A stretch of DNA of 64,000 nucleotides, from assembly GCA_030599585.1 (NCBI GenBank), contig JAUVNS010000016.1, positions 28,607 through 92,606 of the forward strand. The letters are read 5' to 3'. How positions within the stretch are numbered: position 1 is the first letter of the stretch; each line of letters begins with the position of its first letter. The notes under the pieces were generated by a model. That model saw nothing but the letters and a program-made list of their open reading frames with translations. It was not told the origin of the DNA and did not search any database. The DNA comes from Promethearchaeota archaeon. Its GTDB lineage: Archaea; Asgardarchaeota; Lokiarchaeia; Sigyniarchaeales; SOKP01. Made by a program: the position numbers and the translations under genes. Of the stretch, positions 3,463-60,567 are shown one piece after another.

Positions 3463-5250
3463 TTACGGATCGTCTAAAAACGACGAGTATTTACCGTTAT
3501 ATTTTGTTGTTGATACGTTAACAGACTTAGCTTTGACTTGCTCGGGTTCAAACATGTTTTTAAATTCAGGTTCGCTTCGTTTCGTGTCAATGCTATTTTT
3601 TAAAGATTTGACTTCGACTTGTTCAATTACCCCAAACGAGGCTTCCTTTCCTAAACACTCGTATCCAAACTGAGCCATCAACTCGTCCGTCAGCTCTTCC
3701 TTAAAATCGAGTAAATCGGTTTCGTTAAATTCCAAAGTTTGTTGGTAGTATGGCGTTTTTACTTGAACCACGAACTCCTTTTTAGTTTTATAGGCTCTGA
3801 AGTATAAGAACGCGAGCAAGGAAAGGTAAATCCCTAGGACAGCGAACCCAACGGTGTTAAGTAACCTCAATAAAAAATACATTTCGGCAAAATAAATTAC
3901 TAAAAGCGCTACTGCGTACCCGAAGATAGGAATTGAAGCGTATCTTACGCGAGAGTTAAGCTCGACTTGTGATTTTTGATAATCTTTAATAGAACTCTTT
4001 TTTTTCGTTCTCTTCTCGATCATTTTGTATTTCTTCTCTAAAAATTTAACCAGAGGAGGAACATCGGTGCGAACAACTGCGTGAAGGTTCGAAGTTCTTT
4101 GGTACGGAAAGACCAGCGATTTTTCCATGCTTTTAGGAGGGGCGTTGCACACTAAGATAGGTTCGATAACGACTTTATATTGCGTGGTTCCAGAGAGAAA
4201 CACCAAATTTTTATTTCCGAAGCTTTTTTCCGATCGTAATTCTAGTTGTAAATATTTTTGGAAGAACTGAAGAATAGTAGTATCGTTTGCCACGTCTTCT
4301 TGGATATTATTTCGGACTTGGAATAAATTCTGGGTAATTTGTTTTACGTCGTTAAAAGCTCGCGAATCTTTGTTGTTCCGATAATCTTTCAATTCTATCT
4401 TGGTTTCGTCAACTAATACCGTTCCGCTTCCTTCAAACCGTTTCACAGGAAACAGAAACAAAATTTTAAGGTTATTCGAAACCCCCACTAGTTTACACCC
4501 GAGATAGTCGAGGTTCTTCGTAAACTCACTTAACGATTCTAACGAGTCAGGGATTTCGTAACACCCTAAATCTTTGAACGTTTCTCTAATTTCGAAAGCT
4601 CTACTTCTAGAAAGTCCTGCGTCTACGGTAATTGGTTTTGTGGCAGTAACTTCGATTTCTTCTTCTACTCCTTTTTGTTGTTCTGGCTGATCTTGTTCCG
4701 TTAACATCGCGCGACTAGTATGTTTTATTTCTTGCGAAGCTTCTTCTTCGTATTCAACTACTTCCTCCTCTTCTTCCTCGTATTCAATTACTTGCTCAAC
4801 CTCTAGTTGACCACCGTAATCAACGATTTCAGGGAATTGAATTGCTTTTGGTTTGCTTGCGCTAAAGTCTTCTTCCGCCTGAACTTCTTCGTAAGAATTT
4901 TGTGTCTCTTCTACGATTAGTTCTTCCACTTCGTATTTTTCAACTTGGGTTGGTAATAATTCGATTTCTACTGCTTCTTGAATTTGAGGCGTATTGTTTG
5001 CAATACTTTCTTCTTGAGAACTATCCAAATAATTTTTAGCCGCAGTAATGAATTTTGTGGCGGTGGTTAAACCAATTCCGGGAGTTTCAGAAAGTCGTTC
5101 AGGAGTCATCTCGGCAATTTGTCTTACCGTTACAATTTTTGCGTTATATAATTTCTCGGCGGTAGTCGTACCAATACCCTTGATCTTGGTTAGATCGTCT
5201 CTAGAAAGCTTAACAACTACGTTTTTTTGGGTTCCGTATACATCTGTCAT
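3463..5250 (-). CDS. Helix-hairpin-helix DNA-binding protein with acidic linker and two TM helices
   Basis: N-terminal DLTKIKGIGTTTAEKL...TPGIGLTTATKF (HhH2, Rad51-N-like); E-rich linker; hydrophobic hairpin YASIPIFGYAVALLVIYFA / VGFAVLGIYLSLLAFLYF. Confidence 0.8.
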   Translation of the reverse strand: MTDVYGTQKNVVVKLSRDDLTKIKGIGTTTAEKLYNAKIVTVRQIAEMTPERLSETPGIGLTTATKFITAAKNYLDSSQEESIANNTPQIQEAVEIELLPTQVEKYEVEELIVEETQNSYEEVQAEEDFSASKPKAIQFPEIVDYGGQLEVEQVIEYEEEEEEVVEYEEEASQEIKHTSRAMLTEQDQPEQQKGVEEEIEVTATKPITVDAGLSRSRAFEIRETFKDLGCYEIPDSLESLSEFTKNLDYLGCKLVGVSNNLKILFLFPVKRFEGSGTVLVDETKIELKDYRNNKDSRAFNDVKQITQNLFQVRNNIQEDVANDTTILQFFQKYLQLELRSEKSFGNKNLVFLSGTTQYKVVIEPILVCNAPPKSMEKSLVFPYQRTSNLHAVVRTDVPPLVKFLEKKYKMIEKRTKKKSSIKDYQKSQVELNSRVRYASIPIFGYAVALLVIYFAEMYFLLRLLNTVGFAVLGIYLSLLAFLYFRAYKTKKEFVVQVKTPYYQQTLEFNETDLLDFKEELTDELMAQFGYECLGKEASFGVIEQVEVKSLKNSIDTKRSEPEFKNMFEPEQVKAKSVNVSTTKYNGKYSSFLDDP

Positions 5251-5278: not shown

Positions 5279-5292
5279 TATTTAAAGGAAAA
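5279..5292 (-). promoter_or_regulatory. Non-canonical promoter TTTTCC-TTTAAATA
   Basis: 28 nt upstream of ATG 5250, a leaderless-type spacing. Confidence 0.7.
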
Positions 5293-10116: not shown

Positions 10117-10536
10117 TTACACTTCGTGGAATCGTTCCGCAAGCAAGTCCAAAACCCTTTCTTTCTTAGTTTTTTCGACTTCTTGGCTAAAATCGCGAAA
10201 TCTTCTTAAATCAGAGTCCCACTCCTCGGGCAAATTTCGATACATTTCTACAAATTTGTCCCCGAGATATTCTAAGTTTCCTTGAGCTGCTTTTGAGTTA
10301 ACGTTTTTTTTGGAAAACCCAACGAATAAAAATTGATCCTTTTTGTAAAAAAAGATCGTGTGCGTTTTAAATTCGACAGATTTCAGTTCTTTTACGAATA
10401 ACGTTTCGTGGAAAGAGATACACGCAAAGAGAAACCCACCAATTAATTGCTCGTCGATAGTAAACGAATTACCCTCGTTAAACACTACTTTTCCGCTTTC
10501 AGAAAGTATTAAAAAATCTGTAAGAAATTGAGGCAT
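10117..10536 (-). CDS. Longin/roadblock-like domain protein (Asgard eukaryotic-signature type)
   Basis: ILSESGKVVF, QLIGGFL, FLFVG, W.SD..RFRDF pattern; canonical GGGAAG-TTTAAATA promoter at 10594-10607. Confidence 0.65.
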   Translation of the reverse strand: MPQFLTDFLILSESGKVVFNEGNSFTIDEQLIGGFLFACISFHETLFVKELKSVEFKTHTIFFYKKDQFLFVGFSKKNVNSKAAQGNLEYLGDKFVEMYRNLPEEWDSDLRRFRDFSQEVEKTKKERVLDLLAERFHEV

Positions 10537-19203: not shown

Positions 19204-20478
19204 TCAACAAACCGATGGTGGACCGGTTGGGTTGTGATATCTCCATAGTTCGACTTTCACGCCCTCCTCATCCATATTACCTTTTTTGTTAGATAAAGAA
19301 ACGTCTTGAAAGTTCGTTGAATTATCGTTATTTTGATTTTTGGCAACTGAGGCTACTAAATATCCACTTACGTCTTTTACAACGAGGTAATATTCTTCGC
19401 TCTCGTTTAAGTTGTTAAACACTTGACTTGCGTCCCCTAAGATTATTTGAACTATGTCGTCGCACTGTTCCTCGCCTTCCGAAATCTCGCCAAGGTCTGT
19501 AAACGCAGGATCGAGCACGCCTAATTTGTTCATAACTCTTTTTAATAAATCAGCCGATTTTACGAGACTTACAAAACCCGGAACGTTAAGCCTTTGGATA
19601 ACCCTTTTCTCGACTTGCCTGTGAATCGTTGACATTTTAACGCCTAAACGCTCGCAGATTGCGCTAACGCTCACTTCTTTTTTCTGAGAGCAGAGAAGCG
19701 TAATTGAAGTCACTAAACCCACTACCACGTCGTCCTTAGTATTTTTTATAACATCGTAAAACCTGTCAAGTATTCGTTTCGATTGGTAGTAGAACGACAT
19801 CCCCAAATTGAAGTGCTCGCTGACCTCTAAAATTCTTTCTTTTATGTATTGCTTGCGATCCCGCTCTTGATATTCGGGCCAAATGCGTATAATCGAAAAT
19901 TTAAACGAGTTAAAATCGTTCTTGGAAACCTTGGACACCCCCAAAAGTTCTTTCTCGCTGATCGGTTTACCGTTCTCTTTGTAGTACGCGTAAATAACGC
20001 AAGGCACAAGCATTTCAGCGCTTCTATATTTCGTTCCTTTTTCTAAACTCGCTCGAAATTGCTTGACCTTGCGAACAATTACCTCTACATCGCCTGAGGA
20101 GAAACCTAACGCGGTTAAAATTCGTTTTGCTTCTACTTTTACCGCAATATTAAAAGTTTCTTCGGTAGGTCGGGAAGCGTCTATCTTGCTTAACCCTTCT
20201 AATTTAGCGGAACGTTGCATTCTTCTTCTTTCAGACCTAAATCCGATTTGGGTTTTTCCTAATACGGCGTACTGAACGATGTCTGCGTCGTACGGTCGGT
20301 GATATTCTAATTTTTGTATTTCTAATACTATTCCACACGCTCGACAAGTGTAACCTTCCCGGGTTTCTATCACGTCGGTAGAATTACACACGTCGCATTG
20401 ATATTGCGACTCGAGACCTGAGACAATTTTTAACGATTTTATTTTATCAGCACTATGAGGCGTTGCCATTTTTTTCAA
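19204..20478 (-). CDS. tfb: Divergent transcription initiation factor B (TFB/TFIIB) paralogue with C-terminal extension
   Basis: Zn ribbon CDVC..CRACG, two cyclin-like repeats, HTH VSVSAICERLGVKMSTIHRQV. Confidence 0.8.
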   Translation of the reverse strand: MKKMATPHSADKIKSLKIVSGLESQYQCDVCNSTDVIETREGYTCRACGIVLEIQKLEYHRPYDADIVQYAVLGKTQIGFRSERRRMQRSAKLEGLSKIDASRPTEETFNIAVKVEAKRILTALGFSSGDVEVIVRKVKQFRASLEKGTKYRSAEMLVPCVIYAYYKENGKPISEKELLGVSKVSKNDFNSFKFSIIRIWPEYQERDRKQYIKERILEVSEHFNLGMSFYYQSKRILDRFYDVIKNTKDDVVVGLVTSITLLCSQKKEVSVSAICERLGVKMSTIHRQVEKRVIQRLNVPGFVSLVKSADLLKRVMNKLGVLDPAFTDLGEISEGEEQCDDIVQIILGDASQVFNNLNESEEYYLVVKDVSGYLVASVAKNQNNDNSTNFQDVSLSNKKGNMDEEGVKVELWRYHNPTGPPSVC

Positions 20479-20559
20479 CTCAGTTTTTTTATTGTAATCT
20501 ATTTTTCTTTGATCGATATTTTCTTCCTTTTACTAAGAAAACTAAAATGGGGTGAGGCC

Positions 20560-20575
20560 TTTTTAAACCTTTCGG
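20560..20575 (-). promoter_or_regulatory. Canonical BRE-TATA promoter of the TFB paralogue (CCGAAAGG-TTTAAAAA)
   Basis: Purine-rich BRE directly 5' of a TATA box on the reverse strand. Confidence 0.65.
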
Positions 20576-20979
20576 TTGCTAAAAAAATTTCACAAAAGGT
20601 GGAGTTTATAAACATAAAATGAAATTTTTACAAAACTATAAGATACTAAACATTGTTCACTACAGATTTGTAAAAAAAAATTGTGACGTGATCGCCTCCA
20701 CGATCTGAATCCGAGAGAAGCTCGGTTGGACTGAGTCAGTCAAAATAAGGGTAAGTTTCTCAACCGAATTTTTCTTAAAATCAATATTTTTCTTGTTTGG
20801 TTATGCGATAAAAAGATACACTTTTTGATCAAAGTTCGTTTGTGAAACTTTTTTACTTTTTATTGCACTTTGATCTCTTTTTTTGAAATGATCTTTTTAA
20901 ATCCCACGGATTTTTCCAAAAAATTTTTTACAATTTTTTTTCCTCCTGAAATTTTTTTTTAGATTAATTTTTTCTTTAT

Positions 20980-21774
20980 ATGCTTCCTTTGCGTGACCTA
21001 ATTATAATCATGATAATGTTATATATTTGGTTTTTCGCCTTGTTAGCTGCCTCCAGCGCAATTCGAGCCCTCTACGGGTTAGCACATACGCCCGGATACA
21101 AGTTGTTTTTTAACTTGATAGCCTTTGTTGGAGTGTTCGTTCACGAAGTAGCGCACTATATTGTGTCGCTCATTGTAGGTGGGAATCCCGGTAAAATTCG
21201 GGTGAAATATCGAAGTGAGGATAAAACGAGAATATCCCCTCACGGATCGGTCGGCAATCCGGAATTCAAAAGGCAATCGGTCCTACAAGCGTTCAGTATA
21301 AGTTTTGCCCCTCTTTTGGTGTCCACTTTACTGTTTATGTTTTGCTTAGACGTCGTCTTTCACATCCAAACCGATCTATGGGTAAAAGTAGTTGCTGTAG
21401 TTTTTGGCGTATCGTTAGTGTTTGGCTTAAAACCTTCGGGACAAGACGCGAAAATAGTCGGCTACGCGTATCAAAACGACCCTCGTTATTCGATGTATCA
21501 GATATTTCTCCTAGTATTATCGGGAGTGATTATTTGGTTATTTGTAGATTTATATTTTATCATGCTACCGTTTGAGGTAATGTATTACGCCGAATATATA
21601 TTAATTCTAGTCGTATTTTACTTCGGACTAAAAGGTTTGTTTTGGTTAGCAGGTAGAATTATAGGTAGCGTAGCTAAAAAATTGGGAAAAGCTCAAGTAT
21701 CGAGCCCTAAATTCCTTACCCGAAGAAGAAGGTTTAAATACGTAAAAGACCCTAACGAAAGAGAGGTGCAATAA
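20980..21774 (+). CDS. M50-family (site-2-protease-like) membrane metallopeptidase; likely start 21010
   Basis: HEVAH in a TM segment, SFAPL, PSGQD; promoter motif at 20968-20982. Confidence 0.7.
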   Translation: MLPLRDLIIIMIMLYIWFFALLAASSAIRALYGLAHTPGYKLFFNLIAFVGVFVHEVAHYIVSLIVGGNPGKIRVKYRSEDKTRISPHGSVGNPEFKRQSVLQAFSISFAPLLVSTLLFMFCLDVVFHIQTDLWVKVVAVVFGVSLVFGLKPSGQDAKIVGYAYQNDPRYSMYQIFLLVLSGVIIWLFVDLYFIMLPFEVMYYAEYILILVVFYFGLKGLFWLAGRIIGSVAKKLGKAQVSSPKFLTRRRRFKYVKDPNEREVQ

Positions 21775-22878: not shown

Positions 22879-22892
22879 TTTTCCTTTAAATA
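22879..22892 (+). promoter_or_regulatory. Non-canonical promoter TTTTCC-TTTAAATA
   Basis: 21-22 nt upstream of ATG 22914. Confidence 0.7.
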
Positions 22893-23689: not shown

Positions 23690-23709
23690 CAATTAAAAAC
23701 TCTCTTTTT

Positions 23710-23722
23710 TTTTCTTTAAATA
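23710..23722 (+). promoter_or_regulatory. Non-canonical promoter of radA, TTTTC-TTTAAATA
   Basis: 35 nt upstream of ATG 23758. Confidence 0.65.
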
Positions 23723-23757: not shown

Positions 23758-25051
23758 ATGAGAGATGATAACAAAAAAATTATGTCAGACTTAGACCAAG
23801 TAAAATCGATCAACGCCCGACAGATCAAACTCCTTCAAGAAAGCGGGATTAGCACGGCTGAAGCGCTTGCAATGTCCCCACACAACATCATATCAGAGAT
23901 CGACGGATTAGGCGGTAAAACGGCGAAAAAATTAATTTGGAACGCGAGAAACGCCCTTGGAATGACAGAATTCACGACTGCTTACGATATCGACGAGAAT
24001 ACGGAGTATATTACCACCGGTTCTTCTGAACTAAACAGGATTTTAGGCGGTGGGTTCCAAACGGGTAAACTTACCGAAGTATACGGTCCTTTCAAAAGCG
24101 GGAAGACGAATTTGGCCCATACCATTGCGGTAACCATCCAACTTCCAAAGAAAAAAGGAGGTTTGAACTCGGCTGTTGCTTACATTGACACGGAAAACAC
24201 GTTTGCTAAGGAAAAAATCAAAAGAATCGCCAAGAGATTTGGACTCGATCCAAAAAAAGTACTGTCCCAAATATTTCACGCCAGAATATATTCTTCAGAC
24301 CACCAGATGCAAATGATTCAGAAGGCAGAAACCCTATGCAAGACGAGGAACGTGCGACTTATCGTGGTAGATAGCTTAATGGCTTTAATGAGAGTTGAAT
24401 ACATAGGAATTGGAATGCTCGCTCGTCGTCAAGGAGTTCTCAACAACATGATACACGGGCTTTCTCGAATTGCAGAGACTTACAATTGCGCTATTTTACT
24501 TACCAATCAAGTATCGACCAAAATGATGGGTATGTTTTCAGGAAACGACGCCATAGGGGGAAATAGTGACGAGATATTTCGTCAGTCACTTCTAAATAGT
24601 AGCCCATGGTTGCCACTTCCGTGTCATGTTTAAAACAAAAGGATTTTCAGCAAATAACTCTTTGAAGCGAAGAGCAGTGATAGTAGACGCGCCCGACTTA
24701 CCACCAGACGAAGCTGAGTTCTATATTACAGCCGTAGGTATTGCTGACACAGAAAAAGGAGAAGTTCCGGAAGCGAAAGGGTTGGACTTCGAAGTAGAAG
24801 CGTTGTACGAGGAAGAGCAAGTTGTAGAAGAAGTGTCTATTGAAGAAAGTACCGATTCAGGAGAGTATTCATTAATAGACGTAAAAGGGATAGGAGCCGG
24901 AATGGCAAAAAACCTCATTAAAAACGGAGTTACTTCGGTTGACGCCTTGATTGAATCCGATCCCGAACAACTTGCCTCCAAAATTAGCGGTATCTCCTCT
25001 AAAATGATAAATGATTGGCAAACAAACGCGATTGCTCTTATAAACGCCTAA
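23758..25051 (+). CDS. radA: RadA recombinase, join(23758..24564,24596..25051), 420 aa after removal of the 31-nt intron; carries an extra C-terminal HhH domain
   Basis: N-terminal HhH, GPFKSGKT, IDTENTF, LIVVDS, TNQV. Removing 24565-24595 gives AIGGN|IVAHGCHFRVMFK..RRAVIVDAPDLPPDEAEFYIT..GI, the continuous RadA/Rad51 C-terminus. Confidence 0.9.
24565..24595 (+). other. Candidate bulge-helix-bulge (BHB/BHL) mRNA intron, 31 nt
   Basis: GGAA(24559-62):UUCU(24590-93) 4-bp helix; bulge AU^A(24563-65); bulge/loop AA^A(24594-96); intron stem GUGAC:GUCAC; the cuts restore the frame and the IGGNIVAH motif. Confidence 0.8.
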
Positions 25052-29051: not shown

Positions 29052-29112
29052 TTTTTCCTTTAAATATATAAACTTCCCTATCTTCAATTAGTATTGTAGG
29101 TGAACTAAAAAA

Positions 29113-34233: not shown

Positions 34234-34314
34234 TATTTTTTTCAATAGGATTTTTCCTTTAAATATTCGCCCCTTATTTTTTACTTATTAGTAAATTATT
34301 ATTAGGTTTTAATC

Positions 34315-35238
34315 GTGAGCGATTCAGTAGACGAGTTATATCGACAGTTATTAAATCTTGGTATGTCAGAAGCAGAACTAGAAAAAAAAGTTAAAAACAA
34401 AGTAGAAGAATACGGCGGTTTTATGACAGAACAGGGAGTGTTGTTTATAATTGCCAGAGAAAACGGGCTTGATTTACGGTCTCCCGATATTGACGATTAT
34501 CTTTACGACGAGTTAGAAGAAGAAATTGATTACGACGAGTTTACCATAGATAATTCGGACCTCAAGGAAGGTATGACCAACATAGTGCTATTAGGTAAGA
34601 TTTTAACCGTCCAAAAAGTTCGCGAGTTCGTCAGGAAGGATCAGTCCGTGGGAAAGGTGTGCTCTTTTTTGTTCGGCGACTCAACCGGAACCGTAAAAAT
34701 CGTTTTGTGGGACGATCGGGCAGATATCGTTAATCAAGAATATTTCAAACAGAAAGAGCTCGTAAGAATTGTTGGTGGATACGCAAAATTAGGACAGAAC
34801 GAGGCAATAGAAGTTCACTTAGGAAAAAAAGGTACGCTACTTCTCTCTCCCGAAGTGTCCGGTAAGAAGCGGGAACAATTAGAAGCGATAACGGTTGCAA
34901 GTTCAGACGATTATTCTCGTAAGAGCGCTTTAAAACCGTTAAGTCAAGCCCTCGAGCAAAATAAATACGTCAGCGTAGTAAAAGGAACCGTCCTAATTGA
35001 AGAATTTAAGGAGTTAGAATTGAAATCGGGCGATAAATCGTTTTTGCTCACCATCCTCTTAGAGTCGGAAGGTACTACGATTCGAGTGAAAGCGTGGGGT
35101 ATGAAAGCGATAGAATGTTTAAAAATAATAAACGACGGAGATTGCGTTTCAATAACTAATCTAGCGGTAAAAGAGAACAAATACTCGTTAGAAAAAGAGC
35201 TTTCTTTTACGAAGAATTCGAACGTGTTATTAATTTAA
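34315..35238 (+). CDS. rpa: Replication protein A / OB-fold ssDNA-binding protein
   Basis: YGGFMTEQGVLFIIARENG N-terminal domain; REFVRKD..GKV..GDSTGTVKIVLWD; second OB fold; motif at 34251-34265. Confidence 0.85.
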   Translation: MSDSVDELYRQLLNLGMSEAELEKKVKNKVEEYGGFMTEQGVLFIIARENGLDLRSPDIDDYLYDELEEEIDYDEFTIDNSDLKEGMTNIVLLGKILTVQKVREFVRKDQSVGKVCSFLFGDSTGTVKIVLWDDRADIVNQEYFKQKELVRIVGGYAKLGQNEAIEVHLGKKGTLLLSPEVSGKKREQLEAITVASSDDYSRKSALKPLSQALEQNKYVSVVKGTVLIEEFKELELKSGDKSFLLTILLESEGTTIRVKAWGMKAIECLKIINDGDCVSITNLAVKENKYSLEKELSFTKNSNVLLI

Positions 35239-36561: not shown

Positions 36562-36641
36562 TTTGTGGAAAATTTTTTCTTTAAATACTTAAAAATTCTT
36601 ATTCGTAAAAAAATACATATTATTGGAGAAATGATGAAAAA

Positions 36642-37175
36642 ATGACAATATACGTTCCTAAAGCGCTTTACGAGAACGAGATCGCCCAAGTGTTAGACGA
36701 AGTGCGTTATAATTACGGGATGTTAACCAGAAAAGGATACATCTATGGATTGATTGCTATAGACCAAGACGCAAAAATAATCGCAATCGATTCTCGGTTC
36801 GACAGGAAGCTAAATTATTGGGACTTAAGTTCTATTGGAGCGGCGTTGTATGGGGTTGCCCGGCAAGCACAAGATTTCTTCGAAGCCGATTCTTTGGTTC
36901 GAGCAACTTTAATATTTAAAGACTTACAGCTCTACGTCAAATCGATCGGAGACGTGATCCTCGTCAAAAAAGGAAAGCGAGAGATTCTGGTAATTCTTTT
37001 GGTAGATAATCAAGTCAACATTGGCGTGCTCATACTCCAAATGCGCAAGTTTTCGGAAAGGATAAAAGAAGCCATTACTCAAAGCCAAACCATCATGCAA
37101 AAACTTCAGATGTCGGAACAAGATCTCAAACAATACCTCAGAGAGTTAAAGAAAAAAGTTTTTCAGTCAGCGTAA
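36642..37175 (+). CDS. Roadblock/LC7 (MglB-like) protein
   Basis: GLIAIDQDAKIIA, SSIGAALYGVA, VNIGVLILQMRK; adjacent to an MglA-like GTPase. Confidence 0.75.
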   Translation: MTIYVPKALYENEIAQVLDEVRYNYGMLTRKGYIYGLIAIDQDAKIIAIDSRFDRKLNYWDLSSIGAALYGVARQAQDFFEADSLVRATLIFKDLQLYVKSIGDVILVKKGKREILVILLVDNQVNIGVLILQMRKFSERIKEAITQSQTIMQKLQMSEQDLKQYLRELKKKVFQSA

Positions 37176-37199
37176 TTTTAGACGAGGCGATCAGAAAAA

Positions 37200-37865
37200 A
37201 TGACTGTAGATTCCAACGATAAAGGTAAGGAATTGGAAAAAAAAGAACTCGGTATAAGCGATAAATCCGGGACAAATTCTCTCAAGGAAGTGTTGCAATT
37301 TAAAGTAGTTTATTGGGGTCCTGGCGAATCTGGGAAAACTACTAACTATTTTAGGTTAAGAGAAAAGTTCGACGGAGTGAAACTCAACCGAGGATATTCT
37401 ATAGAAACCACGGACGGAAGAACCTTGTGGCAAGATTCTGTGCGCTTGTCGTTCTATCTTAACCTCGCAGAGATAAAATTTAACGTTATAACCCAGATCG
37501 TGACCGCAACGGGACAAGAACGGTTTTTGTCCACTCGCGAATACGTGTTAGACGGTGCAGACGGTGTGGTATTTGTCGCCGACTCCGATCCAGAAAAAAT
37601 GGAGCAAAATAAACGCAGTTTCCGGGAATTGGTAAGTTTTACCAGCGAACAGGACGTTCCTTTCGTTATTCAGCTCAATAAAAGAGATTTAGAGGGGGCC
37701 ATTTCAGTCGAAGAGTTCAAAAAAGAACTTGGGCTGCCGAAGTTTGAAAAATACGAAGACGGAACGCAAGTTGTATATCCCACCGTTGCGATCGAAGGAG
37801 AAAGCGTGAGAAAATGTTTTGAAGATTTGATGGTGCTCGTATTGTTCAACTTTTTTCGCGAATAA
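37200..37865 (+). CDS. MglA-like small GTPase
   Basis: KVVYWGPGESGKTTN, DGRTL, TATGQ, GADGVVFVADS, NKRD. Confidence 0.85.
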   Translation: MTVDSNDKGKELEKKELGISDKSGTNSLKEVLQFKVVYWGPGESGKTTNYFRLREKFDGVKLNRGYSIETTDGRTLWQDSVRLSFYLNLAEIKFNVITQIVTATGQERFLSTREYVLDGADGVVFVADSDPEKMEQNKRSFRELVSFTSEQDVPFVIQLNKRDLEGAISVEEFKKELGLPKFEKYEDGTQVVYPTVAIEGESVRKCFEDLMVLVLFNFFRE

Positions 37866-37899
37866 CAATAATAATAATTTAAAATAATTTTAGCGTCAG

Positions 37900-39093
37900 G
37901 TGAAAAAAAACATGGATACCGAATACGATTTTATCACGCCAGAATTTTTACACTTACTTTTTTTCAAACAGAGAAACATAGTTGTATTTCCCTACGTAGA
38001 CTTAAAGCACCTTAGATCTCTGGACTTGTTTGCGGTAGGTTTCGAGACCGTGGACATTGATTCCACCGTGATTCACAATTTAAACGAGATTATTGAGTAC
38101 GAAAACAACAATTCTTACTCAGCGCTCCAAACTCTTTATTTCGTTCTTAACCCTTCTTTTGAAGAGTTGGAGAAGTTAATAGACTCTAGCGGATTGAGAT
38201 GCGTAATTAACTCAAAGGAGAACGTGGAAAGTTTAGCAAACGGAGACCATTTTGTCTTTTACAACAAGAAAAGCAACACCTTCTTAAACTACTCCTTTGA
38301 TAGCCAAGATTTATCCTTTGAAAAAGAACTATTTCGGATTTCTTCTAGCAAGGAATTGCTATTAGACGAGCTTCTTAAGGTAAAAAGCGCGTCCTCCAAA
38401 ATTTTCGCCGAGCTAAACCAAAGCGGAACTCCCGATAATTTTCCAGAAATTCTTGACGGATACGACCAGAAATATTGGGGCAAAATTCTTGAGTTTACCA
38501 AGTTATATTATCAAATAGAAATTCCGGATTTTAATCCTCTCCCTCAATTGCCTAAAAACGGTAGTGCAGAAAAAAAAGAAATCGACTACTCATCAGAGTA
38601 CGAAATAGTTATTAAGACCAACCGTAAAATTGGAAGGTCGTTCATTCAATTAATTCACGAATATCGCTATAATAAGGTTAATTCGGCTAACTTAGAAGTA
38701 AACCAACTGTTCTACCCCAAGAAGCTTTATAATTACCTCAGAAACCACCATTGGAAAGACGGGATACCCAAAGAATTCGTTATTGACTGGCTTAAAAGCG
38801 CAAATAAAGATTTTTCGGACAATGAAGAAGCTTTAATGGAATTCCAAGTAATTCTTAACATGTTAAATCTAGATTATTCTATGAACGAAGTCAAATTAAA
38901 GGAAAAACAAGAACTTGAGAGTAAAATAAATACCCTTAGAAAAAAACCAATCAAACATAGCGAATCTATACCCTCAGCACCTGCTAACCGACCAAAAATA
39001 GTGTCAACTATACCTTCCATCCACAATTTTTCTGAATTTAGGCAATGGTTGTTAGATAAGATAGCCAAGTTAGAGAAGTTGGAATTAAGTTAG
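37900..39093 (+). CDS. Hypothetical protein
   Basis: 397 aa ORF co-oriented after the GTPase. Confidence 0.7.
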   Translation: MKKNMDTEYDFITPEFLHLLFFKQRNIVVFPYVDLKHLRSLDLFAVGFETVDIDSTVIHNLNEIIEYENNNSYSALQTLYFVLNPSFEELEKLIDSSGLRCVINSKENVESLANGDHFVFYNKKSNTFLNYSFDSQDLSFEKELFRISSSKELLLDELLKVKSASSKIFAELNQSGTPDNFPEILDGYDQKYWGKILEFTKLYYQIEIPDFNPLPQLPKNGSAEKKEIDYSSEYEIVIKTNRKIGRSFIQLIHEYRYNKVNSANLEVNQLFYPKKLYNYLRNHHWKDGIPKEFVIDWLKSANKDFSDNEEALMEFQVILNMLNLDYSMNEVKLKEKQELESKINTLRKKPIKHSESIPSAPANRPKIVSTIPSIHNFSEFRQWLLDKIAKLEKLELS

Positions 39094-39141
39094 ACGGGAG
39101 TGCATTTTTTTCTTTAAATACTCCTCGTTAATTGTCGCTTT

Positions 39142-40227
39142 ATGATAGCACCTGAACTCGTAAAAATCCAAAAATCGAGAATAAGCCTTTCCATGGCGAG
39201 ATATTTCGACTTCGTAGGACAATACGAAAAATCGTTAGAAGCGGTCGAAGAATTTTTAGAACAAAAACCTCTTCATAAAAGAGCGTTAAAATTGAAATGT
39301 AGTATGACCAAGATCTTAGATCGATTACCGGAATCGATTCAAGCTTGCAAACAACTCCTTTCGCTTTGTAAGCCCGTGCGGGATTTTTGGAAAAGAACTT
39401 CTTTACTCAATTCAATTGGAAGCGCTTATTGGAGGTTAAAAGAGCCCGAATTAGCAATCAGGTACATGGAAAGCGTCGTCAGGTTGTACGAGATGTACTA
39501 TCGTTGGGGCAAAGAAGCGTTCGACGAACCAATTTTGTGGGCTCTTTGGACTTTAGCAGAATACCAGACAAAATCTGGTAGATTGTCAGACGCCATCGCA
39601 ACGTACGAAAAATCTCTCGAATTTTTGTCTAAAACAGGACCGCTATGCAGCTTCGCCGATCCTCTACACGAACTCGGAATATTATATTATAAACATCAAG
39701 AACTGGACAAAGCATTGCTCAAATTCGTAAGCGCTGCGAAAATTCACGAATCGTTCAAAATGCTTCTTTATTCTGGATACGATCACTACTTTATCGCTTG
39801 TATTTTACTTGAAAAGGAAATTTTCTCACAATCGCTCGTTCACATCAGAAAAAGCGTTGCATTTCTAAGGAAATCCTACTCTTCAGCTTACTGCGTAGAC
39901 TCGGACGACGATCCGTATTATCGAAGGGCTTATAGATTGAGAAACGCTCTGCAAAAACACGTATCTAAGGCTTTAATACGCAAAGCCCAAATCGCTGCAA
40001 GTAAAAACGACAAGATATCGACTTTAGAAGCGCTAAAAGAAGCTATTAGAGTTGAAGTAACGCTCAATTTCTCTCAAAATTATGATTTTTCTCATGTATT
40101 CAATATCCACGTTGAAAGTATGAAAAAAAAGATAAATAATTGTCCTGAATTCAAAAGATATAGAGATACAGAAGAATTCAAATCAATGTTTCTCCTGAAT
40201 TATAAAGATTTTAGATATGAAAAATAA
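39142..40227 (+). CDS. TPR-repeat protein with MIAPELVK leader
   Basis: TPR-like helices; motif at 39105-39120. Confidence 0.75.
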   Translation: MIAPELVKIQKSRISLSMARYFDFVGQYEKSLEAVEEFLEQKPLHKRALKLKCSMTKILDRLPESIQACKQLLSLCKPVRDFWKRTSLLNSIGSAYWRLKEPELAIRYMESVVRLYEMYYRWGKEAFDEPILWALWTLAEYQTKSGRLSDAIATYEKSLEFLSKTGPLCSFADPLHELGILYYKHQELDKALLKFVSAAKIHESFKMLLYSGYDHYFIACILLEKEIFSQSLVHIRKSVAFLRKSYSSAYCVDSDDDPYYRRAYRLRNALQKHVSKALIRKAQIAASKNDKISTLEALKEAIRVEVTLNFSQNYDFSHVFNIHVESMKKKINNCPEFKRYRDTEEFKSMFLLNYKDFRYEK

Positions 40228-40359
40228 GTAATATATTTATTTTTTCGTGGCTTCGGCCTCCAATAATCTAAAACCTCAAATCTTTTTCTTTTTTTTTTTA
40301 TAATTTTAATTTTTTTATCAAGACTTTTTCTTTAAATACTACTCATAAGTTGTTAAACC

Positions 40360-40740
40360 ATGATAACACCTGAGCTCGTAAAAACGCGAGAATCAAAAAA
40401 AGCCATGGCACAATGCGCTATTTGTGCCGGATTAGGTATAAAAATCCTAAAATTAGGCTCCAACTTCGCGGTAGTATGTAAAAACTGCTTAGTTACGTTC
40501 TCTTTAAGCGACCTCGAACTTATGCACAACATGTTCCTTGCCTACGGAGGGTATTTCGGGAAATACGCCAGCAGTAAAGAAGAGTCTTATCAAGAACTAG
40601 AAGCAATCTCAGAAGAATACGCTCAGTCAAGTAAAGACTTCGAAAAAATAGAAAGCGACGTGAGAAACCTCCATCGGGCGTTTACGCACGGAATCACCCC
40701 AATTCAATTAGTTCAAGGGCTTCGGGTGTTATCAGACTAA
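40360..40740 (+). CDS. Zinc-finger protein (GGYFG family), paralogue of 22914..23288
   Basis: CAIC..CKNC..FLAYGGYFGK..HR..THGITP; motif at 40325-40338. Confidence 0.75.
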   Translation: MITPELVKTRESKKAMAQCAICAGLGIKILKLGSNFAVVCKNCLVTFSLSDLELMHNMFLAYGGYFGKYASSKEESYQELEAISEEYAQSSKDFEKIESDVRNLHRAFTHGITPIQLVQGLRVLSD

Positions 40741-45360: not shown

Positions 45361-45593
45361 TCGTTCCTATGTCTGAGTGTAAGAGATGTAGACAATCTTG
45401 GCGCCCTCCTAAAGATATAATCTACAAAGAAGGGTTTTGTATTCCTTGTTATTTTATCGTACACGATTTTTTAGAAGAGAAAAAACCTTCTTTAGAAAGG
45501 TGTCTCGTTCAGCAATCTTTATAACCGGGTTTATTAAAAATTTTCTTCGTTGAGACTTTTTCTTTAAATATTCCTCACATGAGTAATAAAACT

Positions 45594-46341
45594 ATGATAA
45601 CACCTGAACACAAGACGGTGAAAAATTATTCTTGATAAAAAATGTTTTATAATTAACAACAACTTAACGCTACAGTTGAACGGAGAAACTACTAATATTT
45701 ACGTGAACGGTAAATTGTTTCGTCACTGCAAATTTCTTTTACTGCAAATTCCTAACGAAAACATTAAAGATTATAAGAGCATCGATTCAATAGACGAAGC
45801 AGAAGAAGTTTATAGTCGTTCGTTAGAGCGTCCCAGAACATCTGTTTGTAAGATTTCTCCGGAAGAAGAATTCTTTGGTCATTGTTCGAATTTGCAAGCG
45901 TGGGCAGAGAACGAATACGATAGTAGAATACTTCACAGAAACTTGGCGTTCCCTTTGTTAAAAATGCTCTTCGATACAGGCGATTCCTTCGCAAAAATTA
46001 GGCTAAGAGAAGAGGTTGCCCTACGCCTTGAGAGTGGACACCCTTCGGTTGTAAGATATCTTATTTCTGAAGGTTATTTGTCGTATTTAGACGAAAATGA
46101 GATAGGGAATATTCTTCTTAGTTTAATTAGAAAACACGGCAAAAACATTAATCCTAAAACATACGACGCTATCATCCATTATTTTTTCAACAAATATCAG
46201 GCTGAATTTGGTTTTTCTTTACTTGAGCTCATTGAGAGAATGGGGAAAGAAAAAAACTACAGAAACACTAAAGGAAGCTGTAAGTGTGGGTTAACATTCA
46301 ATTTTTCTCAATATTTTGATTTATCTCGCACATATCTTTGA
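45594..46341 (+). pseudogene. Loki-type 'NIYVNG..CKFLLL' domain protein with a +1 frameshift in an A5 run near its start
   Basis: MITPEHKTVK (45594) joins KIILDKKCFIINNNLTLQLNGETTNIYVNG if one A is removed at 45621-45625; downstream ORF 45676..46341 carries EEEFFGHCSNLQAW..LHRNLAFPLL. Confidence 0.55.
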
Positions 46342-47289: not shown

Positions 47290-48042
47290 TCAAACAAAGA
47301 CTTCGTTCTTTTTTAACACCCAAGTATCGATTGTGAACTGTTGCGTGTTGCTCGATTCTAAGTCGTAATTCGAGTGGATGGTAGACTTCGGAATCCAAAT
47401 TTGTTTTCCGCTTTCGAAAAGGATCAGAAGCGCTTTTTCGGTCTTTCTCTCGCATATCCCTCTAACCTTAACGGATTCGTTGTCGAGATTTATTTTTTCT
47501 AATTGCGAGGGGGGAACTTGACTAGTAGTTTGGTTTTTTGGTTCTGATACGCCTACCGTTTCTTCTGTCACTAATAGCTCTGATTTTTGCTCGTTTGTTT
47601 CAATGACAGCAGGTTTCTTAAAGCCACCGTTTTTGGATTTAACGGTCGAATTTGCTATTTTCTCTTCGAATACATGCTCCAATAGCGCTTTAAACACCAC
47701 AACCTCGGAGTAGTTTAACATTTTGTAGTAATCGCCACCGTTGACGTGGAATCTTTCTTTATTTTCTTTATCCCATTTGAAAAAAATAGAAGTTTTATTT
47801 TCTTCGAAGATGTGAATCGTTTTCCAACTTGGCGCTTCTTTGCGTAGTACTCTTAGGATGAGCACCATTTCTTCTAGAGAGAATTTAATGGACTTTCCTT
47901 CTCCTTTTGAGGGCTTTTCCCACGTTCCATTATCTTTCTTTTTGATAAACCTTAAAAAAAAAAATTGGTTACTCCAGGAACTACTGTCAAAAAACATCCC
48001 CCCACTCGAACCAAAAAACGCTTTGTTGTGATATTCTACCAT
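47290..48042 (-). CDS. Putative PC4/Whirly-like ssDNA-binding protein with small C-terminal beta domain
   Basis: FIKKKDNGTWEKPSKGEGKSIKFSLEE; C-terminal TEKALLI..WIPKS; motif at 48087-48100. Confidence 0.55.
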   Translation of the reverse strand: MVEYHNKAFFGSSGGMFFDSSSWSNQFFFLRFIKKKDNGTWEKPSKGEGKSIKFSLEEMVLILRVLRKEAPSWKTIHIFEENKTSIFFKWDKENKERFHVNGGDYYKMLNYSEVVVFKALLEHVFEEKIANSTVKSKNGGFKKPAVIETNEQKSELLVTEETVGVSEPKNQTTSQVPPSQLEKINLDNESVKVRGICERKTEKALLILFESGKQIWIPKSTIHSNYDLESSNTQQFTIDTWVLKKNEVFV

Positions 48043-48120
48043 AAGTCGATCAACTTGTACTAATTACTAAGTAATCAGATTTTACTTATTTAAAGAAAAA
48101 TTTATTATTCAAATTTACAA

Positions 48121-48816: not shown

Positions 48817-49950
48817 ATGAACGACGATAACAATCCCTCTGTGTTGAAAGATTGTATAAAATTTATTCAACAGCACAAAAGAGAAGCCCCATTTGAAGAT
48901 ACTCCTTTTATTGAAGGAGAGGATGAAATAAGTTATGATATCGCTAAAGAAAGAATTTTTCCAATTCCGATCTGTAACATTTCGCAAAAATTAGGCTTCG
49001 TGGACGGAGGGACTGCCTCAATTTTGAGCGCAGCAGATTTTAGTATTAGTTTGAATAGAGTTGCAGGAGCATTATTCGAAGGAAATAAAATTACTTCTTT
49101 CAAGAAAACTCCCGAAGTTATAGAATTTTATACTGCCACGATCCTAGAGCCTATGACAGATGGAAAAATGGCTTACAACATCCAACTATTTCCGAGAGAA
49201 CCAGAATTTAAAGAATTTTTGCCAGACGAAGAAATTATTATACCCTTGAGTGAAGTAAGACAATTAATTGGATTTCGATTTATGCCGAGAATTGAGATTT
49301 TTGGCGGAGTTGCAATGAGGTTTGCCGAATGGACATACGCTACCAAACTTATCGAATATGAACTGGATAAGGGAGATATATTTATTCGAGATGGATCGCT
49401 TCAAACTGGATATAAAGACGAAATCTTGTTGGTGAGAGAATTACACGCTACGGCCAAAGAGAAAAATGTGTATATTACTGGACTCTCAAAGACGTGTAGG
49501 TTGATTACAAAAAGCGGGGATTCCTTAATCTCTTTAGTTGATATGATGGCAACTAAAAAATATCCAGAAGAGAAGTGGTATTATCATCCAATTTATAGAA
49601 TAACTAAGGCAGATAATTTAGCAGACGTTTATTTCGTGAAACTCCACAAATATGCTCGCTCGCCTTTTAGGTTTGATATTTATTTAGACCAGTCAAAAAA
49701 GTTAGATCAACAAGAAAAAGAAGTAATCATCTCAAATTTAGCAGAAAATTCAACCGATTTATCGTTTCCCGGTTATCCCTACGGTTTAATCAAAGTAGAT
49801 CAATTATCGAGAGTTGCTGCAAGGGAAATTGGGCCTCAAAAAATTCAGTTAATGGCTGAATTCGATTCGGAGCTTTACGAAAAGTTTATTTTGCCACGCA
49901 TTCGCTCCATCGACGCACACGATCTCTTAAACGCAATAAGAAAAAACTAA
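48817..49950 (+). CDS. nurA: NurA 5'-3' nuclease
   Basis: FVDGG, RDGSL, GLSK, GYPYGL; first gene of the nurA-herA-mre11-rad50 operon. Confidence 0.9.
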   Translation: MNDDNNPSVLKDCIKFIQQHKREAPFEDTPFIEGEDEISYDIAKERIFPIPICNISQKLGFVDGGTASILSAADFSISLNRVAGALFEGNKITSFKKTPEVIEFYTATILEPMTDGKMAYNIQLFPREPEFKEFLPDEEIIIPLSEVRQLIGFRFMPRIEIFGGVAMRFAEWTYATKLIEYELDKGDIFIRDGSLQTGYKDEILLVRELHATAKEKNVYITGLSKTCRLITKSGDSLISLVDMMATKKYPEEKWYYHPIYRITKADNLADVYFVKLHKYARSPFRFDIYLDQSKKLDQQEKEVIISNLAENSTDLSFPGYPYGLIKVDQLSRVAAREIGPQKIQLMAEFDSELYEKFILPRIRSIDAHDLLNAIRKN

Positions 49951-49993
49951 AAATTAAATTAAAATTATAACTCAAGTATGAAGGTAATAAAAA

Positions 49994-51583
49994 ATGACAG
50001 AATTAGGAAATAAAATAGGAAGTTTCGTATCAGGGTCTTTTGCAAAATTAATGCTAAGACAAAAATCCGAAAAGGAATTTGAGATTGGAGAATTAATTGT
50101 CGCTGGAAATAGTGCGAACGAATATTCAATCTTCCAGATTAAAGATTTATTTTACGGAAGCCAAATTCCCGATAGTTCTTTGGAGTTAATGGCGGGGTAT
50201 AAATTAGAAAGAGAACGCTCAAATCTCAAAATTTACGAGCCTGAACTAAGGAATTACGTACTTGCCCACGCAAGGGAATTAATATCCGTTAAAAAAAACG
50301 AGGTTTCAGGAGATTTTAATCTTACAATTCCCAAAAAATTACCCAAATTCTTTTCAGATATTTACGAATTAGAAGAATCTCACCTTCAATTTTTCCAAGA
50401 AGAAGAGATTGAGACGCCGTTAAACCTTGGAAAAGTGCGTTCTGGTTCGAAAGTCTTAAATATAAACGTTAAGGTTAACGCTCCAGAGGTATTAAAACAT
50501 CATATATTAATACCGGCGGCAACGGGAAGAGGTAAATCTAATTTGGTAAAAACAATTCTTTACGATCTTCTGGACAACGATAAGTGTGGTAAATTAATAT
50601 TTGACCCCCATAACGAATATTACGGAAGCACAAATCAAAAAGGTTTGAGAGATCACCCAAAAAGTCCTGAATTCTTAGAATATTATACAACAAGAAAAAA
50701 TCCGGGAGCGAACGATTTGAAATTTAACATGAACCTCATTAATCCGGCACACGTTATTGGAAGTATTAGCCTTACCGACGCCCAGAAACAAGCAATGGTA
50801 GTGTTTTATCGGGCTGATAGAAAAAAGTGGATTCAAAATATATTTGAGGATCAGTCAATAGCAGAATTAAAAACCAAAGGAATTCAACTTACAACTATCG
50901 AAGTTCTAAGGAGGAAGATTGGGCTACTATTAAACCTTTACCTTGAAGAAGACGGAACTCTAACCGAAAGAGGAATTTATAAAGCTAACGGCTACGAGCA
51001 AACTACGCACGCTATAATAAGTTCTTTATCTGAGGGCAAAACAGTTATTATTGATAGTTCCTTATTAGAAGGCGCAGAAGAGATATTTATCGCCTCAATT
51101 ATCGTAGAAGGAGTGTTTAAAGCTTACAAAAAGCTTAAGTTTGACGATAAATTGCGCGATAGACCTGTTATCTCAATCGTAATCGAAGAAGCTCCGCGAG
51201 TTATTGGAAAAAAAGTGTTAGATTCAATTGACAACGTCTTTGGAAAGATCGCAAGGGAAGGAAGGAAATTCCAAATCGGTCTTATCGCAATTACGCAGCT
51301 TCCGAGCATAATCGATCGCGAGATTCTTGCCAATATGAACACAAAAATTATTCTTGGAAACGAAATGGGTCCAGAACGAAGGGCTTTAATTGATAGTGCT
51401 GCCCAAGACTTATCGGACGATTATCAAACGATCGGAAGCCTTGATAAAGGAGAAGCTATTGTCACATCTACATTTACTAAATTTGCAGTTCCAATTAGCA
51501 TACCTTTATTTGAAGATTTTATTAAAGAAGGGAAACAAAAACAAAATTCAAAAACTAAAACAACATCACCTGGATTTTCGTAA
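49994..51583 (+). CDS. herA: HerA helicase/ATPase
   Basis: HAS-barrel-like N-terminus, [31 protein letters not shown]. Confidence 0.9.
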
Positions 51584-51624
51584 ATCTTAAGTGATTAAAA
51601 ATAAATAAGTAAAAGGTCAAAAGA

Positions 51625-55004: not shown

Positions 55005-55110
55005 GATTTAGATTAAATTCTTAAACTTAATGAATTAATGGATAAATCAATATTTTTTATTATTATTTTAATATGATAATTATATAATTGATCTTAGTTT
55101 CTTTGTAAAG

Positions 55111-58605: not shown

Positions 58606-58680
58606 TAAATTTTTGGATGATTTACCAAAGAACCAATAAGATTTTAACTCCAAATTAATTGGGACTCATGCTTTATATTT

Positions 58681-59622
58681 TTGAAAACAAATAAAATCTT
58701 TAATAAACCTCAAGCTTACAATGTGAAAGAAATTGTGATTAGAGACGGAGATTTATCCTTAGCAGGGAACCATCCACTATTTAACTCGTTTACATTTGTA
58801 AAAGGGATTGGCGGTAAAGCAGAAACGATGCTCAGAGAATTAGGCATACGTTGTTGGAATGACGTGATAAAAAAACAGCGTCCTGAACTGTTTCCAAAAC
58901 AGAAGTGGGTTACCTTATGGAATGGCGTCAATTCAGCAATAGAAGCTCTAAAAGTCCTCGATATATCCCAACTAACAAGGCTTATACCCAATATACAACA
59001 TTGGAAAATGATCCCAAACTTTATTGACCGTATTGCTTACCTCGATATTGAGACGACCGGTTTAAGCCCTCACTATAGCCATATAACAACTATTGCCGTT
59101 TACGATGGAACGAGAGTTCACGATTTTGTTAGAGGTGATAATTTACACGATTTTCCGGATTTTATTTCGAAATTTTCTGCAATAACTACTTTTTACGGTA
59201 AAGCTTTCGATATTCCGTTTATCAGGCACGAAATGGGAATCGGTTTTAATCAAATCCATTTTGACGTGTGCTTCTTACTCAGGAGATTACAGATAAAGGG
59301 TGGCTTAAAAAAAATTGAAAAAAGGTTTGGAATCTCGCGTGGTGCTCTTGAAGACTTGGACGGCTATTCTGCGGTGCTCTTGTGGAAAAAATATAAACAA
59401 ACTAAAGAAAAAGAATATCTCGAAACGTTATTGGCCTATAATAACGAAGACGTTATCAACCTCGAGTTCCTCTTACATCAAGCCTACAATTTACTGATCG
59501 AAAAAGAACACTCCTTTACGCCTCCTTTAGAATTTCCAAAAAAGAAGGTTACAAATCCTTTTGTGGCGAACAAACGAGTTGTGAAAGAAATATTAGGAAG
59601 AAGGACAAATTTATACCGTTAA
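58681..59622 (+). CDS. YprB/RNase H-like (DEDD) exonuclease with N-terminal HhH
   Basis: VKGIGGKAE, YLDIETTG, FYGKAFDIPF, LLAYNNED. Confidence 0.85.
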   Translation: MKTNKIFNKPQAYNVKEIVIRDGDLSLAGNHPLFNSFTFVKGIGGKAETMLRELGIRCWNDVIKKQRPELFPKQKWVTLWNGVNSAIEALKVLDISQLTRLIPNIQHWKMIPNFIDRIAYLDIETTGLSPHYSHITTIAVYDGTRVHDFVRGDNLHDFPDFISKFSAITTFYGKAFDIPFIRHEMGIGFNQIHFDVCFLLRRLQIKGGLKKIEKRFGISRGALEDLDGYSAVLLWKKYKQTKEKEYLETLLAYNNEDVINLEFLLHQAYNLLIEKEHSFTPPLEFPKKKVTNPFVANKRVVKEILGRRTNLYR

Positions 59623-59673
59623 TTGACGAGTTAAGAAAAGAATGAACCGAAGTTTTTCACAAATTAATATTAA

Positions 59674-60546: not shown

Positions 60547-60567
60547 TTTTTTAGAAAACACATTAAA

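Follow-up and report, generated by a model that had tools for sequence, protein, structure and literature searches.

The eTFB gene and its product

The eTFB gene lies on the minus strand of a 64,000-nt stretch of Promethearchaeota archaeon DNA (assembly GCA_030599585.1, contig JAUVNS010000016.1, positions 28,607 to 92,606), referred to below as the window. It encodes a putative initiation factor of the TFB family and is a core gene of a 55-70 kb genomic island, often duplicated, whose promoters are marked by a T-tract and a C directly before the TATA box (TTTYC-TTTAAATA), at the position of the B recognition element (BRE). An earlier note on this DNA had described an island-resident TFB paralogue as a candidate sigma-like regulator; the family assignment is borne out by the searches described below, and the residence by the recurrence of the gene as part of the island core. 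The open reading frame (ORF) spans 19204-20469 when counted from an ATG at 20469 (421 aa) or 19204-20478 from an in-frame TTG at 20478, which adds three residues; the stop codon occupies 19204-19206. A database entry of 421 aa (P0002) is 100% identical to the product, and the orthologues start with MAT.

The protein begins with a Zn ribbon CxxC-x13-CxxC (C28, C31, C45 and C48; 20335-20397), which aligns with the ribbons of the host TFBs and whose four cysteines are invariant in 57 family members. It is followed by a linker TQIGxxxER (T76, G79, E83 and R84; 20227-20253), near-invariant in the columns of the family alignment, which may be the counterpart of the B-linker motif GLSTxIG. The first cyclin fold (about residues 105-200; 19879-20166) was assigned from profile matches to TFIIB and TFB and from an AlphaFold2 predicted local distance difference test (pLDDT) score above 95, while the second (about residues 208-297; 19588-19857) was assigned from the AlphaFold2 model and its Foldseek superposition on 1d3u_B. 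The second fold contains a helix-turn-helix (HTH) at the BRE-reading position (residues 269-289, VSVSAICERLGVKMSTIHRQV; 19612-19674), placed by gap-free alignment with host TFBs and human TFIIB. The B-reader is about 12 residues shorter than the canonical one, with YHRPY in place of the host EWRAF, and model confidence is low in the segment between ribbon and core.

Both the alignment and the AlphaFold2 model place a C-terminal extension without counterpart in canonical TFBs at 19207-19587. It had previously been estimated at roughly 100 aa, and alignment with the ten canonical TFBs of the genome shows that eTFB runs about 125 residues past their C-terminus. In the extension, a conserved helical segment, GF.SLVKS..LLK (F302/L305/S308), is joined by a variable, acidic linker to a small beta unit, and the protein ends in a conserved (T/K)GPP (P420, P421). 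The pLDDT is high to about residue 330 and low past that, and an atlas feature search with the extension returned no look-alike.

As a single sequence, eTFB matched Zn_Ribbon_TF (PF08271) in the Pfam search at E=9.7e-4 (19.1 bits, below the cut-off of 29) and gave no match to the TFIIB repeat (PF00382). An NCBIfam search gave nothing useful, phmmer found no match among PDB chains, and a PF00382 scan of the genome recovered the ten canonical TFB genes and missed eTFB. Searched as a profile, the family alignment of 57 sequences matched cyclin fold 1 of human TFIIB (E=2.8e-7), the Pyrococcus woesei TFB (1.1e-5), Brf2 (1.6e-3) and Brf1 (2.1e-3). The AlphaFold2 model has a mean pLDDT of 78.6, exceeding 95 over residues 110-330, and the top 42 Foldseek matches to it are TFIIB, TFB or Brf chains without exception. 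The core superposes on 1d3u_B with a target-normalised template modelling (TM) score of 0.79 (root-mean-square deviation 3.5 A over 209 columns) and on 1ais_B with a TM score of 0.75. A complex prediction of the eTFB core with host TBP scored 0.00, which weighs neither for nor against binding. Sequence and model suggest that eTFB is a complete but highly divergent TFB-family initiation factor. The invariant ribbon cysteines and the conserved linker indicate that the polymerase-touching parts appear to be under selection, which argues for a working initiation factor over a mere DNA binder.

The recognition helix

The HTH of eTFB aligns without gaps with GVTE(V/A)T(I/V)RNRY of the host TFBs and GVADVTIRQSY of human TFIIB. 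Ser283 and His286 (His or Gln in the family) occupy the positions of V283 and R286 of human TFIIB, the two numberings coinciding, and for these human residues contacts with BRE bases are reported (Lagrange 1998; Tsai and Sigler 2000). eTFB lacks the VT.VT.R.R of the canonical BRE-reading helix; its recognition helix reads MSTIHRQV, with a family consensus MSTIQxQVK that is kept across genera. All ten host TFBs retain the canonical helix VTE(V/A)T.R.R. The HTH is among the most conserved segments of the eTFB family, with C275 invariant and S283 conserved in at least 90% of members; by its sequence, the rewritten helix is not decayed. The altered helix claimed earlier at 19612-19674 corresponds exactly to residues 269-289, and the sequence offered there as canonical (RTQREVA...VTEVTVRNRY) proved to be that of the P. 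woesei TFB (1d3u_B), with the host TFBs being of the same type.

The island and its promoters

The motif TTTTCC-TTTAAATA, allowing up to two mismatches, occurs 24 times in the window against 6.2 +/- 2.5 expected, and none of 100 shuffles reached 24. Genome-wide, TTTYCTTTAAATA has 46 copies compared with 10 for the reversed control; 34 of the 46 fall in the island copies, which account for 5.4% of the genome (binomial p about 1e-33), and the other 12 correspond to the reversed-control level. The pyrimidine-BRE motif that the earlier note had pointed out is thus specific to the island. When TATA-like boxes with a following ORF were used as seeds, the island contigs showed T at 51-64% in positions -6 to -2 and C at 43% in position -1, and 864 host sites seeded in the same way were flat. 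Attempts to draw a host promoter consensus from 17 tRNA upstream regions, from 6-mers upstream of TATA-like boxes and from a spacing-restricted set yielded no clear BRE and a mild enrichment of A. The motif is retained in paralogous promoters despite diverged flanks. On C12, the contig that holds the window, about 19 transcription units bear the motif, all within C12 8-77 kb. In several genes the ATG lies 34 nt from the start of the motif, as expected for leaderless transcripts.

Among the individual island promoters, TTTTCCTTTAAATA was found on the minus strand at 5279-5292, upstream of the gene for a helix-hairpin-helix (HhH) membrane protein (3463-5250), and on the plus strand at three further sites. 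The first of these (22879-22892) lies 34 nt from the ATG at 22914, a leaderless arrangement, and its motif is kept in C49 and C20 with diverged flanks; the second (29053-29066) precedes a small ORF; the third (34252-34265) is upstream of an RPA-like gene with an oligonucleotide/oligosaccharide-binding fold (34315-35238) and is kept in C12, C20, C23 and C52 with divergent flanks. The variant TTTTTCTTTAAATA occurs on the plus strand at 23709-23722, upstream of a RadA-like gene (23758-25051), and at 36574-36587, upstream of an operon (36642-39093) that includes an Arf-like GTPase gene. Three more plus-strand promoters lie at 39107-39120, 34 nt from the ATG at 39142 of a tetratricopeptide repeat (TPR) protein and leaderless; at 40325-40338, 34 nt from the ATG at 40360 and likewise leaderless; and at 45557-45570, with an ATG 22 nt past the motif (MITPE...). 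The rightmost one, on the minus strand at 48087-48100, is upstream of 47290-48042(-), and no motif was seen further right. The regions 39107-39165, 40325-40390 and 45557-45612 belong to unrelated genes with a common promoter and near-identical first codons MI(A/T)PE..., the ATG being 22 nt past the motif, which looks like a copied promoter-plus-start cassette.

The divergent neighbour operon of eTFB is preceded by a variant of the T-tract-C-TATA arrangement, TTTTTCTTTATATG, on the plus strand at 20969-20982. This variant overlaps the annotated ATG at 20980, so the true start is probably Met10 (21007), with a leaderless transcript.

Three eTFB genes are present in this genome, located on C12, on C49 (94% identical) and on C20 (70%). 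The whole 92 kb of C12 is collinear with the set C51-C49-C6-C52-C38 at about 87% nucleotide identity, non-island DNA included, and this set may have its source in a co-binned relative. With contamination at 8.9% and a genome about 1 Mb larger than those of its congeners, part of the bin may be a related organism. In addition, C12 10-67 kb is collinear with C20:238-294 kb at about 75% identity, the C20 copy being embedded in a 411-kb contig, and a fourth, partial copy of the island is found on C23. The GC content of C12 is 36% versus about 32% for the genome.

The island encodes RadA-like, RadB/KaiC-like ATPase, FEN1-like and RPA-like proteins, Hel308-like and other SF2 helicases, the HhH membrane protein, an Arf-like GTPase, longin and TPR proteins, a radical-SAM enzyme and many proteins of no family. 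The housekeeping RadA and FEN1 genes are located elsewhere with higher scores, so the island carries its own paralogues. Two overlapping ORFs, each in another frame, make up the island RadA-like gene (23758-25051): one of 291 aa (Rad51 domain) and one of 141 aa (HhH). The longin-domain protein (10117-10536) and the Arf-like small GTPase (37200-37865), the latter in a motif-driven operon, are eukaryote-signature types inside the island.

In at least 45 genomes the contig with eTFB also carries, at a distance of 7-20 kb, a marker gene of the island, whose 1275-aa product had no Pfam match. A search for tyrosine integrases found none on the island, and Pfam scans of about 60 island and flanking ORFs revealed no viral hallmark (capsid, integrase or other mobility gene). 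The possibility that the island is an integrative element was set aside, given the lack of an island integrase and of any Pfam match for the marker. To the right of the island, at 48817-62730, there is a NurA-HerA-Mre11-Rad50 operon (48817-55004), followed by an Eco57I/MmeI-type restriction-methylase gene (type IIG; 55111-58605), and this flank also contains RNase H-like, MYG1-like and UvrD genes; the island motif precedes none of them.

The promoter of the eTFB gene

The promoter of eTFB itself (20560-20575, minus strand) lies 98 nt upstream of the ATG and consists of a purine- and A-rich BRE-like segment CCGAAAGG (20575-20568) followed by the TATA box TTTAAAAA (20567-20560). At this distance the eTFB transcript would have a leader with a Shine-Dalgarno-like site, and a conserved TAGTGATCA near the ATG can be read as such a site. 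Among the orthologues, the box was anchored automatically in 24 of 46 upstream regions, with several more alike by eye. These promoters, from many genera, have TTTAAAA(A/T) as their box, with A upstream of it at -3 in 24/24 and at -4 in 75%; a T-tract plus C was never seen in the 24. The earlier note had called this promoter canonical. The A-rich BRE is indeed kept in the orthologues, and the term holds only relative to the general archaeal consensus.

Downstream of the TATA box, many genera share a conserved block CAAACTCC(T)TCC (loci L015-L064; window 20480-20560). It is a candidate operator or initially melted region, and as such might place eTFB expression under conditional control. The C49 and C20 copies of eTFB have another promoter variant, TTCAAATA-GCAAACTGG, likewise without a T-tract. 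The region 20493-20795 upstream of eTFB is unalignable between C12 and C49, whereas its flanks are about 89% identical, and the C12 promoter is of the type found in another clade of the same genus, which together suggest promoter replacement by recombination. A leadered eTFB gene, with a promoter class unlike that of the surrounding leaderless island genes, fits a cascade.

Distribution of eTFB and of the motif

The eTFB family comprises 296 clusters at 90% identity and 344 representatives at 50% identity, with the named entries coming from metagenome-assembled genomes of Lokiarchaeota or 'Hermodarchaeota'. In a survey of 400 Asgard genomes, eTFB was found in 97 of 134 genomes of one Lokiarchaeial family, at 0-4 copies per genome, some of them broken. 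The sister family has only weak relatives, in 7 of 14 genomes (E 1e-24 to 1e-34), and the remaining genomes of the survey, about 250, gave no eTFB match. A pattern scan of IMG/VR likewise returned no eTFB relative. In a quick maximum-likelihood tree, supported by the Shimodaira-Hasegawa-like approximate likelihood ratio test only, eTFB tracks the host genera with 10 label changes (minimum 9, shuffled mean 27.2), which points to long vertical residence. Copies within one genome stem from duplications within a genus, and the canonical TFBs are separated from eTFB by a very long branch. The island therefore looks mostly vertically inherited in one family, with duplications, and not like a typical, freely mobile element.

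Two side observations concern relatives of eTFB. Three genes of this genome (C9:327119-327691, C9:335298-335861 and C10:7501-8025; L012-L014) encode an eTFB-type cyclin core at about 25% identity (E 1e-16 to 1e-20). Their products have about 484-620 aa, database relatives of this type contain several N-terminal HTH domains and no Zn ribbon, and one of the C9 genes has TTTCTTTTAAATA upstream. The second is the sole eTFB of a 95%-complete genome (L103; G177:C64:36000-55900), in which the Zn ribbon is out of frame, with a break near residue 55. Its flanks are still motif-bearing, and the break may reflect a sequencing error, pseudogenisation or a frameshift.

The motif was counted at 19 eTFB loci (361 kb) from 16 other genomes and at 12 control loci (239 kb) of the same genomes with equal GC. 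The eTFB loci contain 43 copies of TTTYCTTTAWATA and 76 of TTTTTVTTTAWAWA against 3 for the reversed control, and the corresponding numbers at control loci are 2, 4 and 3. Among 63 genomes of at least 95% completeness, the mean motif excess over the reversed control, itself flat, was +1.0, +6.8, +9.9, +11.1 and +25.3 at 0, 1, 2, 3 and 4 eTFB copies (Spearman rho 0.39), figures that are descriptive for genomes that are kin. The co-occurrence suggested as a check in the earlier note was thus found across genera and with copy number. Genomes that carry the marker gene and have no detected eTFB still have the motif; in all five of those whose geometry was examined, the contig ends before the expected eTFB position, so that absence of eTFB is not established in them. 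The motif and eTFB travel together, and the data do not single out which island protein reads the motif.

Proposed mechanism and alternatives

As the best explanation of these observations, to which we give an even chance, eTFB would be a dedicated island-encoded initiation factor that reads a T-rich BRE in a sigma-like cascade. A host TFB would transcribe the eTFB gene from its conventional promoter (A-rich BRE plus TTTAAAA). The product would then join host TBP and RNA polymerase at the island promoters, where the HTH, through Ser283 and His/Gln286, would read the TTTYC abutting the TATA box, in the place where canonical promoters carry A-rich purines. The cascade would thus run from host TFB to eTFB to island promoters. 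Direct reading by eTFB is suggested because the motif sits exactly where the HTH of a TFB contacts DNA, because the sole TFB-family protein with a changed HTH is island-encoded, and because the polymerase-facing ribbon and linker are conserved. The cascade proposed in the earlier note is in keeping with the island-specific motif and the distinct, conserved eTFB promoter, which fit two tiers, whereas its DNA-reading step is one that we infer. Somewhat short of even odds, we also consider that eTFB defines an orthogonal promoter class, in which the helix would read the T-tract and C, about the inverse of the A-rich BRE. Its private regulon would comprise about 20 units per island copy, many of them leaderless, and with its own gene kept conventional the cascade would have two tiers. 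Such a class would turn on the island genes jointly, including the RadA-, FEN1-, RPA- and Hel308-like genes, the membrane operons, the small GTPase and the TPR gene.

Several points weigh against direct reading by eTFB. Co-occurrence is expected for any two parts of an island, so eTFB is not thereby singled out as the reader; the genomes compared are, moreover, non-independent. Besides its ten TFBs, the host possesses three TBPs, and further Zn-finger and HTH proteins are encoded on the island. Co-variation of helix and motif across genera gave no signal, both being too conserved. One genus (g2) has eTFB, yet the exact 13-mer is not in excess there, and in the closed genome G189 a distance of 750 kb separates eTFB from the marker region with the motif, so that eTFB would have to act there in trans. 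The promoters called canonical are so by the general archaeal BRE consensus, the host's own consensus being not derivable. The T-tract-TATA motif was not found in the genome of WyrdV1, a Lokiarchaeota virus with a TFB-like protein, a comparison that is uninformative as a replicate since the motif is missing and that protein lacks the ribbon.

The foremost of the alternatives, though one that we regard as unlikely, is an auxiliary role. In this case eTFB, as an activator or co-factor, would assist a complex of host TFB and TBP on the island promoters through protein contacts, for instance via its extension, while the T-tract would be a DNA-shape or TBP-affinity element or be read by another island protein. 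In Sulfolobales, TFB3 is not an initiation factor that works on its own, yet its regulon is activated by it (PMC6101594). The shortened B-reader of eTFB, its conserved extra C-terminal module and the several other small Zn-finger and DNA-binding candidates on the island are in line with such a role, and the co-occurrence data fit it equally well. However, unlike TFB3, eTFB retains the ribbon, the conserved linker and both cyclin folds, the conservation of its HTH (C275 and S283) argues for its use, and the conserved element lies exactly at the BRE position, abutting the TATA box.

It is less probable still that eTFB and the motif merely share the island. Here eTFB would have another role, a host TFB or TBP paralogue would serve the island promoters, and the T-tract might double as an oligo-T terminator. 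Oligo-T runs do serve as terminators in archaea, the ten host TFBs fall in several subgroups beside the three TBPs, and both the marker regions of genomes with no detected eTFB and the distant eTFB of G189 are as this account would have it. On the other hand, all five such genomes examined have a contig that stops before the eTFB site, and every host TFB has the canonical helix. The T-tract has a fixed register (C at -1), is present at divergent promoters and is missing upstream of host TATA-like boxes, although host DNA also needs terminators; the motif excess, too, scales with eTFB copies. Least probable is that eTFB is the relic of a domesticated virus or mobile element and, as an inhibitor or decoy, draws TBP or RNA polymerase away from host promoters: Asgard viruses and mobile genetic elements (MGEs) encode TFB homologues (10.1101/2021.07.29.453957; PMC13700489), the WyrdV1 protein is nearer to eTFB in sequence than any solved TFB, and the island is richer in GC and multi-copy, pseudogenised copies included, but the tree indicates long vertical residence, the search of the island yielded no capsid, integrase or other mobility gene, and the conserved distinct HTH with a matching island-wide promoter element would be left unexplained.

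Whether archaeal TFB paralogues act as sigma-like selectors through differing BREs has long been asked, with little documentation so far, the haloarchaeal cases being subtle and that of TFB3 indirect. eTFB offers a testable pair, a conserved but rewritten helix and a sharply defined, island-restricted element at the BRE position, with the ten canonical host TFBs as built-in controls. If the proposal of a dedicated factor is true, it would show TFIIB-type factors diversifying promoter recognition in the archaeal lineage closest to eukaryotes, and would inform the question of how separate promoter classes were divided among TFIIB, Brf and Rrn7. In addition, it would open a way into a so far uncharacterised island of 55-70 kb with many recombination genes, and would be an example of a two-tier sigma-like cascade made of eukaryotic-type basal factors.

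Comparison with known systems

Canonical TFB and TFIIB (P. woesei TFB, 1AIS/1D3U; human TFIIB) share with eTFB the Zn ribbon, the linker, two cyclin folds and an HTH at the BRE position in the second fold. eTFB differs from them in its shorter B-reader, in MSTI(H/Q)xQV in place of VTEVT(I/V)RNRY, in about 125 extra residues ending in GPP, and in its confinement to one Lokiarchaeial family and island. A TFB-paralogue-specific BRE is known in Halobacterium (the hsp5 BRE and TFBb, PMC2396416). The idea that paralogues select promoter subsets via the BRE in a sigma-like manner applies to the haloarchaeal TFBs as it does to eTFB; however, the haloarchaeal proteins, close relatives whose helices are canonical, have BRE preferences that are subtle, whereas in eTFB a rewritten helix goes together with a shift of the BRE-position element from A-rich to T-rich.

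The TFB3 of Sulfolobales, which we take to be truncated, without B-reader/linker and full cyclin core, and dependent on TFB1, resembles eTFB, in the role proposed here, as a TFB paralogue dedicated to one programme, with its own expression regulated upstream of the regulon. TFB3 drives a DNA-damage and DNA-exchange/repair regulon (PMC6101591, PMC6101594), and its target promoters carry a specific short motif (PMC5817253). By comparison, eTFB is full-length with an extension, and its associated motif lies at the BRE position itself. The presence of both cyclin folds and the conserved linker sets eTFB apart from a truncated paralogue of the TFB3 type. The precedent drawn from TFB3 in the earlier note accordingly stands as a functional analogy and fails for the architecture.

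TFB homologues are also encoded on Asgard viruses and MGEs (WyrdV1, 10H_0, 7H_42 and JinchiV1) and on some rudiviruses (10.1101/2021.07.29.453957; PMC13700489), and the Asgard cases share with eTFB the presence of a TFB-like gene on an accessory element of Lokiarchaeia. The WyrdV1 protein is 24% identical to eTFB (E=4e-10), has the same helix type, (V/M)S.(I/V)C..LGI..ST(I/V), and falls inside the eTFB clade of a quick tree on a very long branch, its position being unsure. It differs in having 240 aa and no Zn ribbon, while eTFB resides on a vertically inherited 55-70 kb island with no viral hallmark found. With no integrase, no viral hallmark and no IMG/VR relative detected, and with a tree that follows the genera, eTFB was not assigned to a recognisable virus or MGE. 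In WyrdV1 (L102, MZ666939.1) an intergenic block of about 60 nt, GTTTTTTAAGGTATTAGGCACTTAGCCTAATCGAAAAGC..., is repeated three times before three genes (1040-1111, 2121-2193 and 2514-2590), and is presumably the virus's own promoter or operator class.

Brf1/Brf2 and Rrn7/TAF1B resemble eTFB in combining a TFIIB-like core with a C-terminal extension and, as proposed for eTFB, in being dedicated to a promoter subset. However, the Brf matches to the eTFB core are weaker than those of TFIIB, and the extension has no detectable similarity. Given these matches and the single-family distribution, a Brf1 or Rrn7 ancestry was set aside. Literature searches turned up no description of the eTFB family, of the island or of a T-rich element at the BRE position; TFB paralogues with dedicated regulons, and TFB homologues on Asgard viruses and MGEs, are known already.

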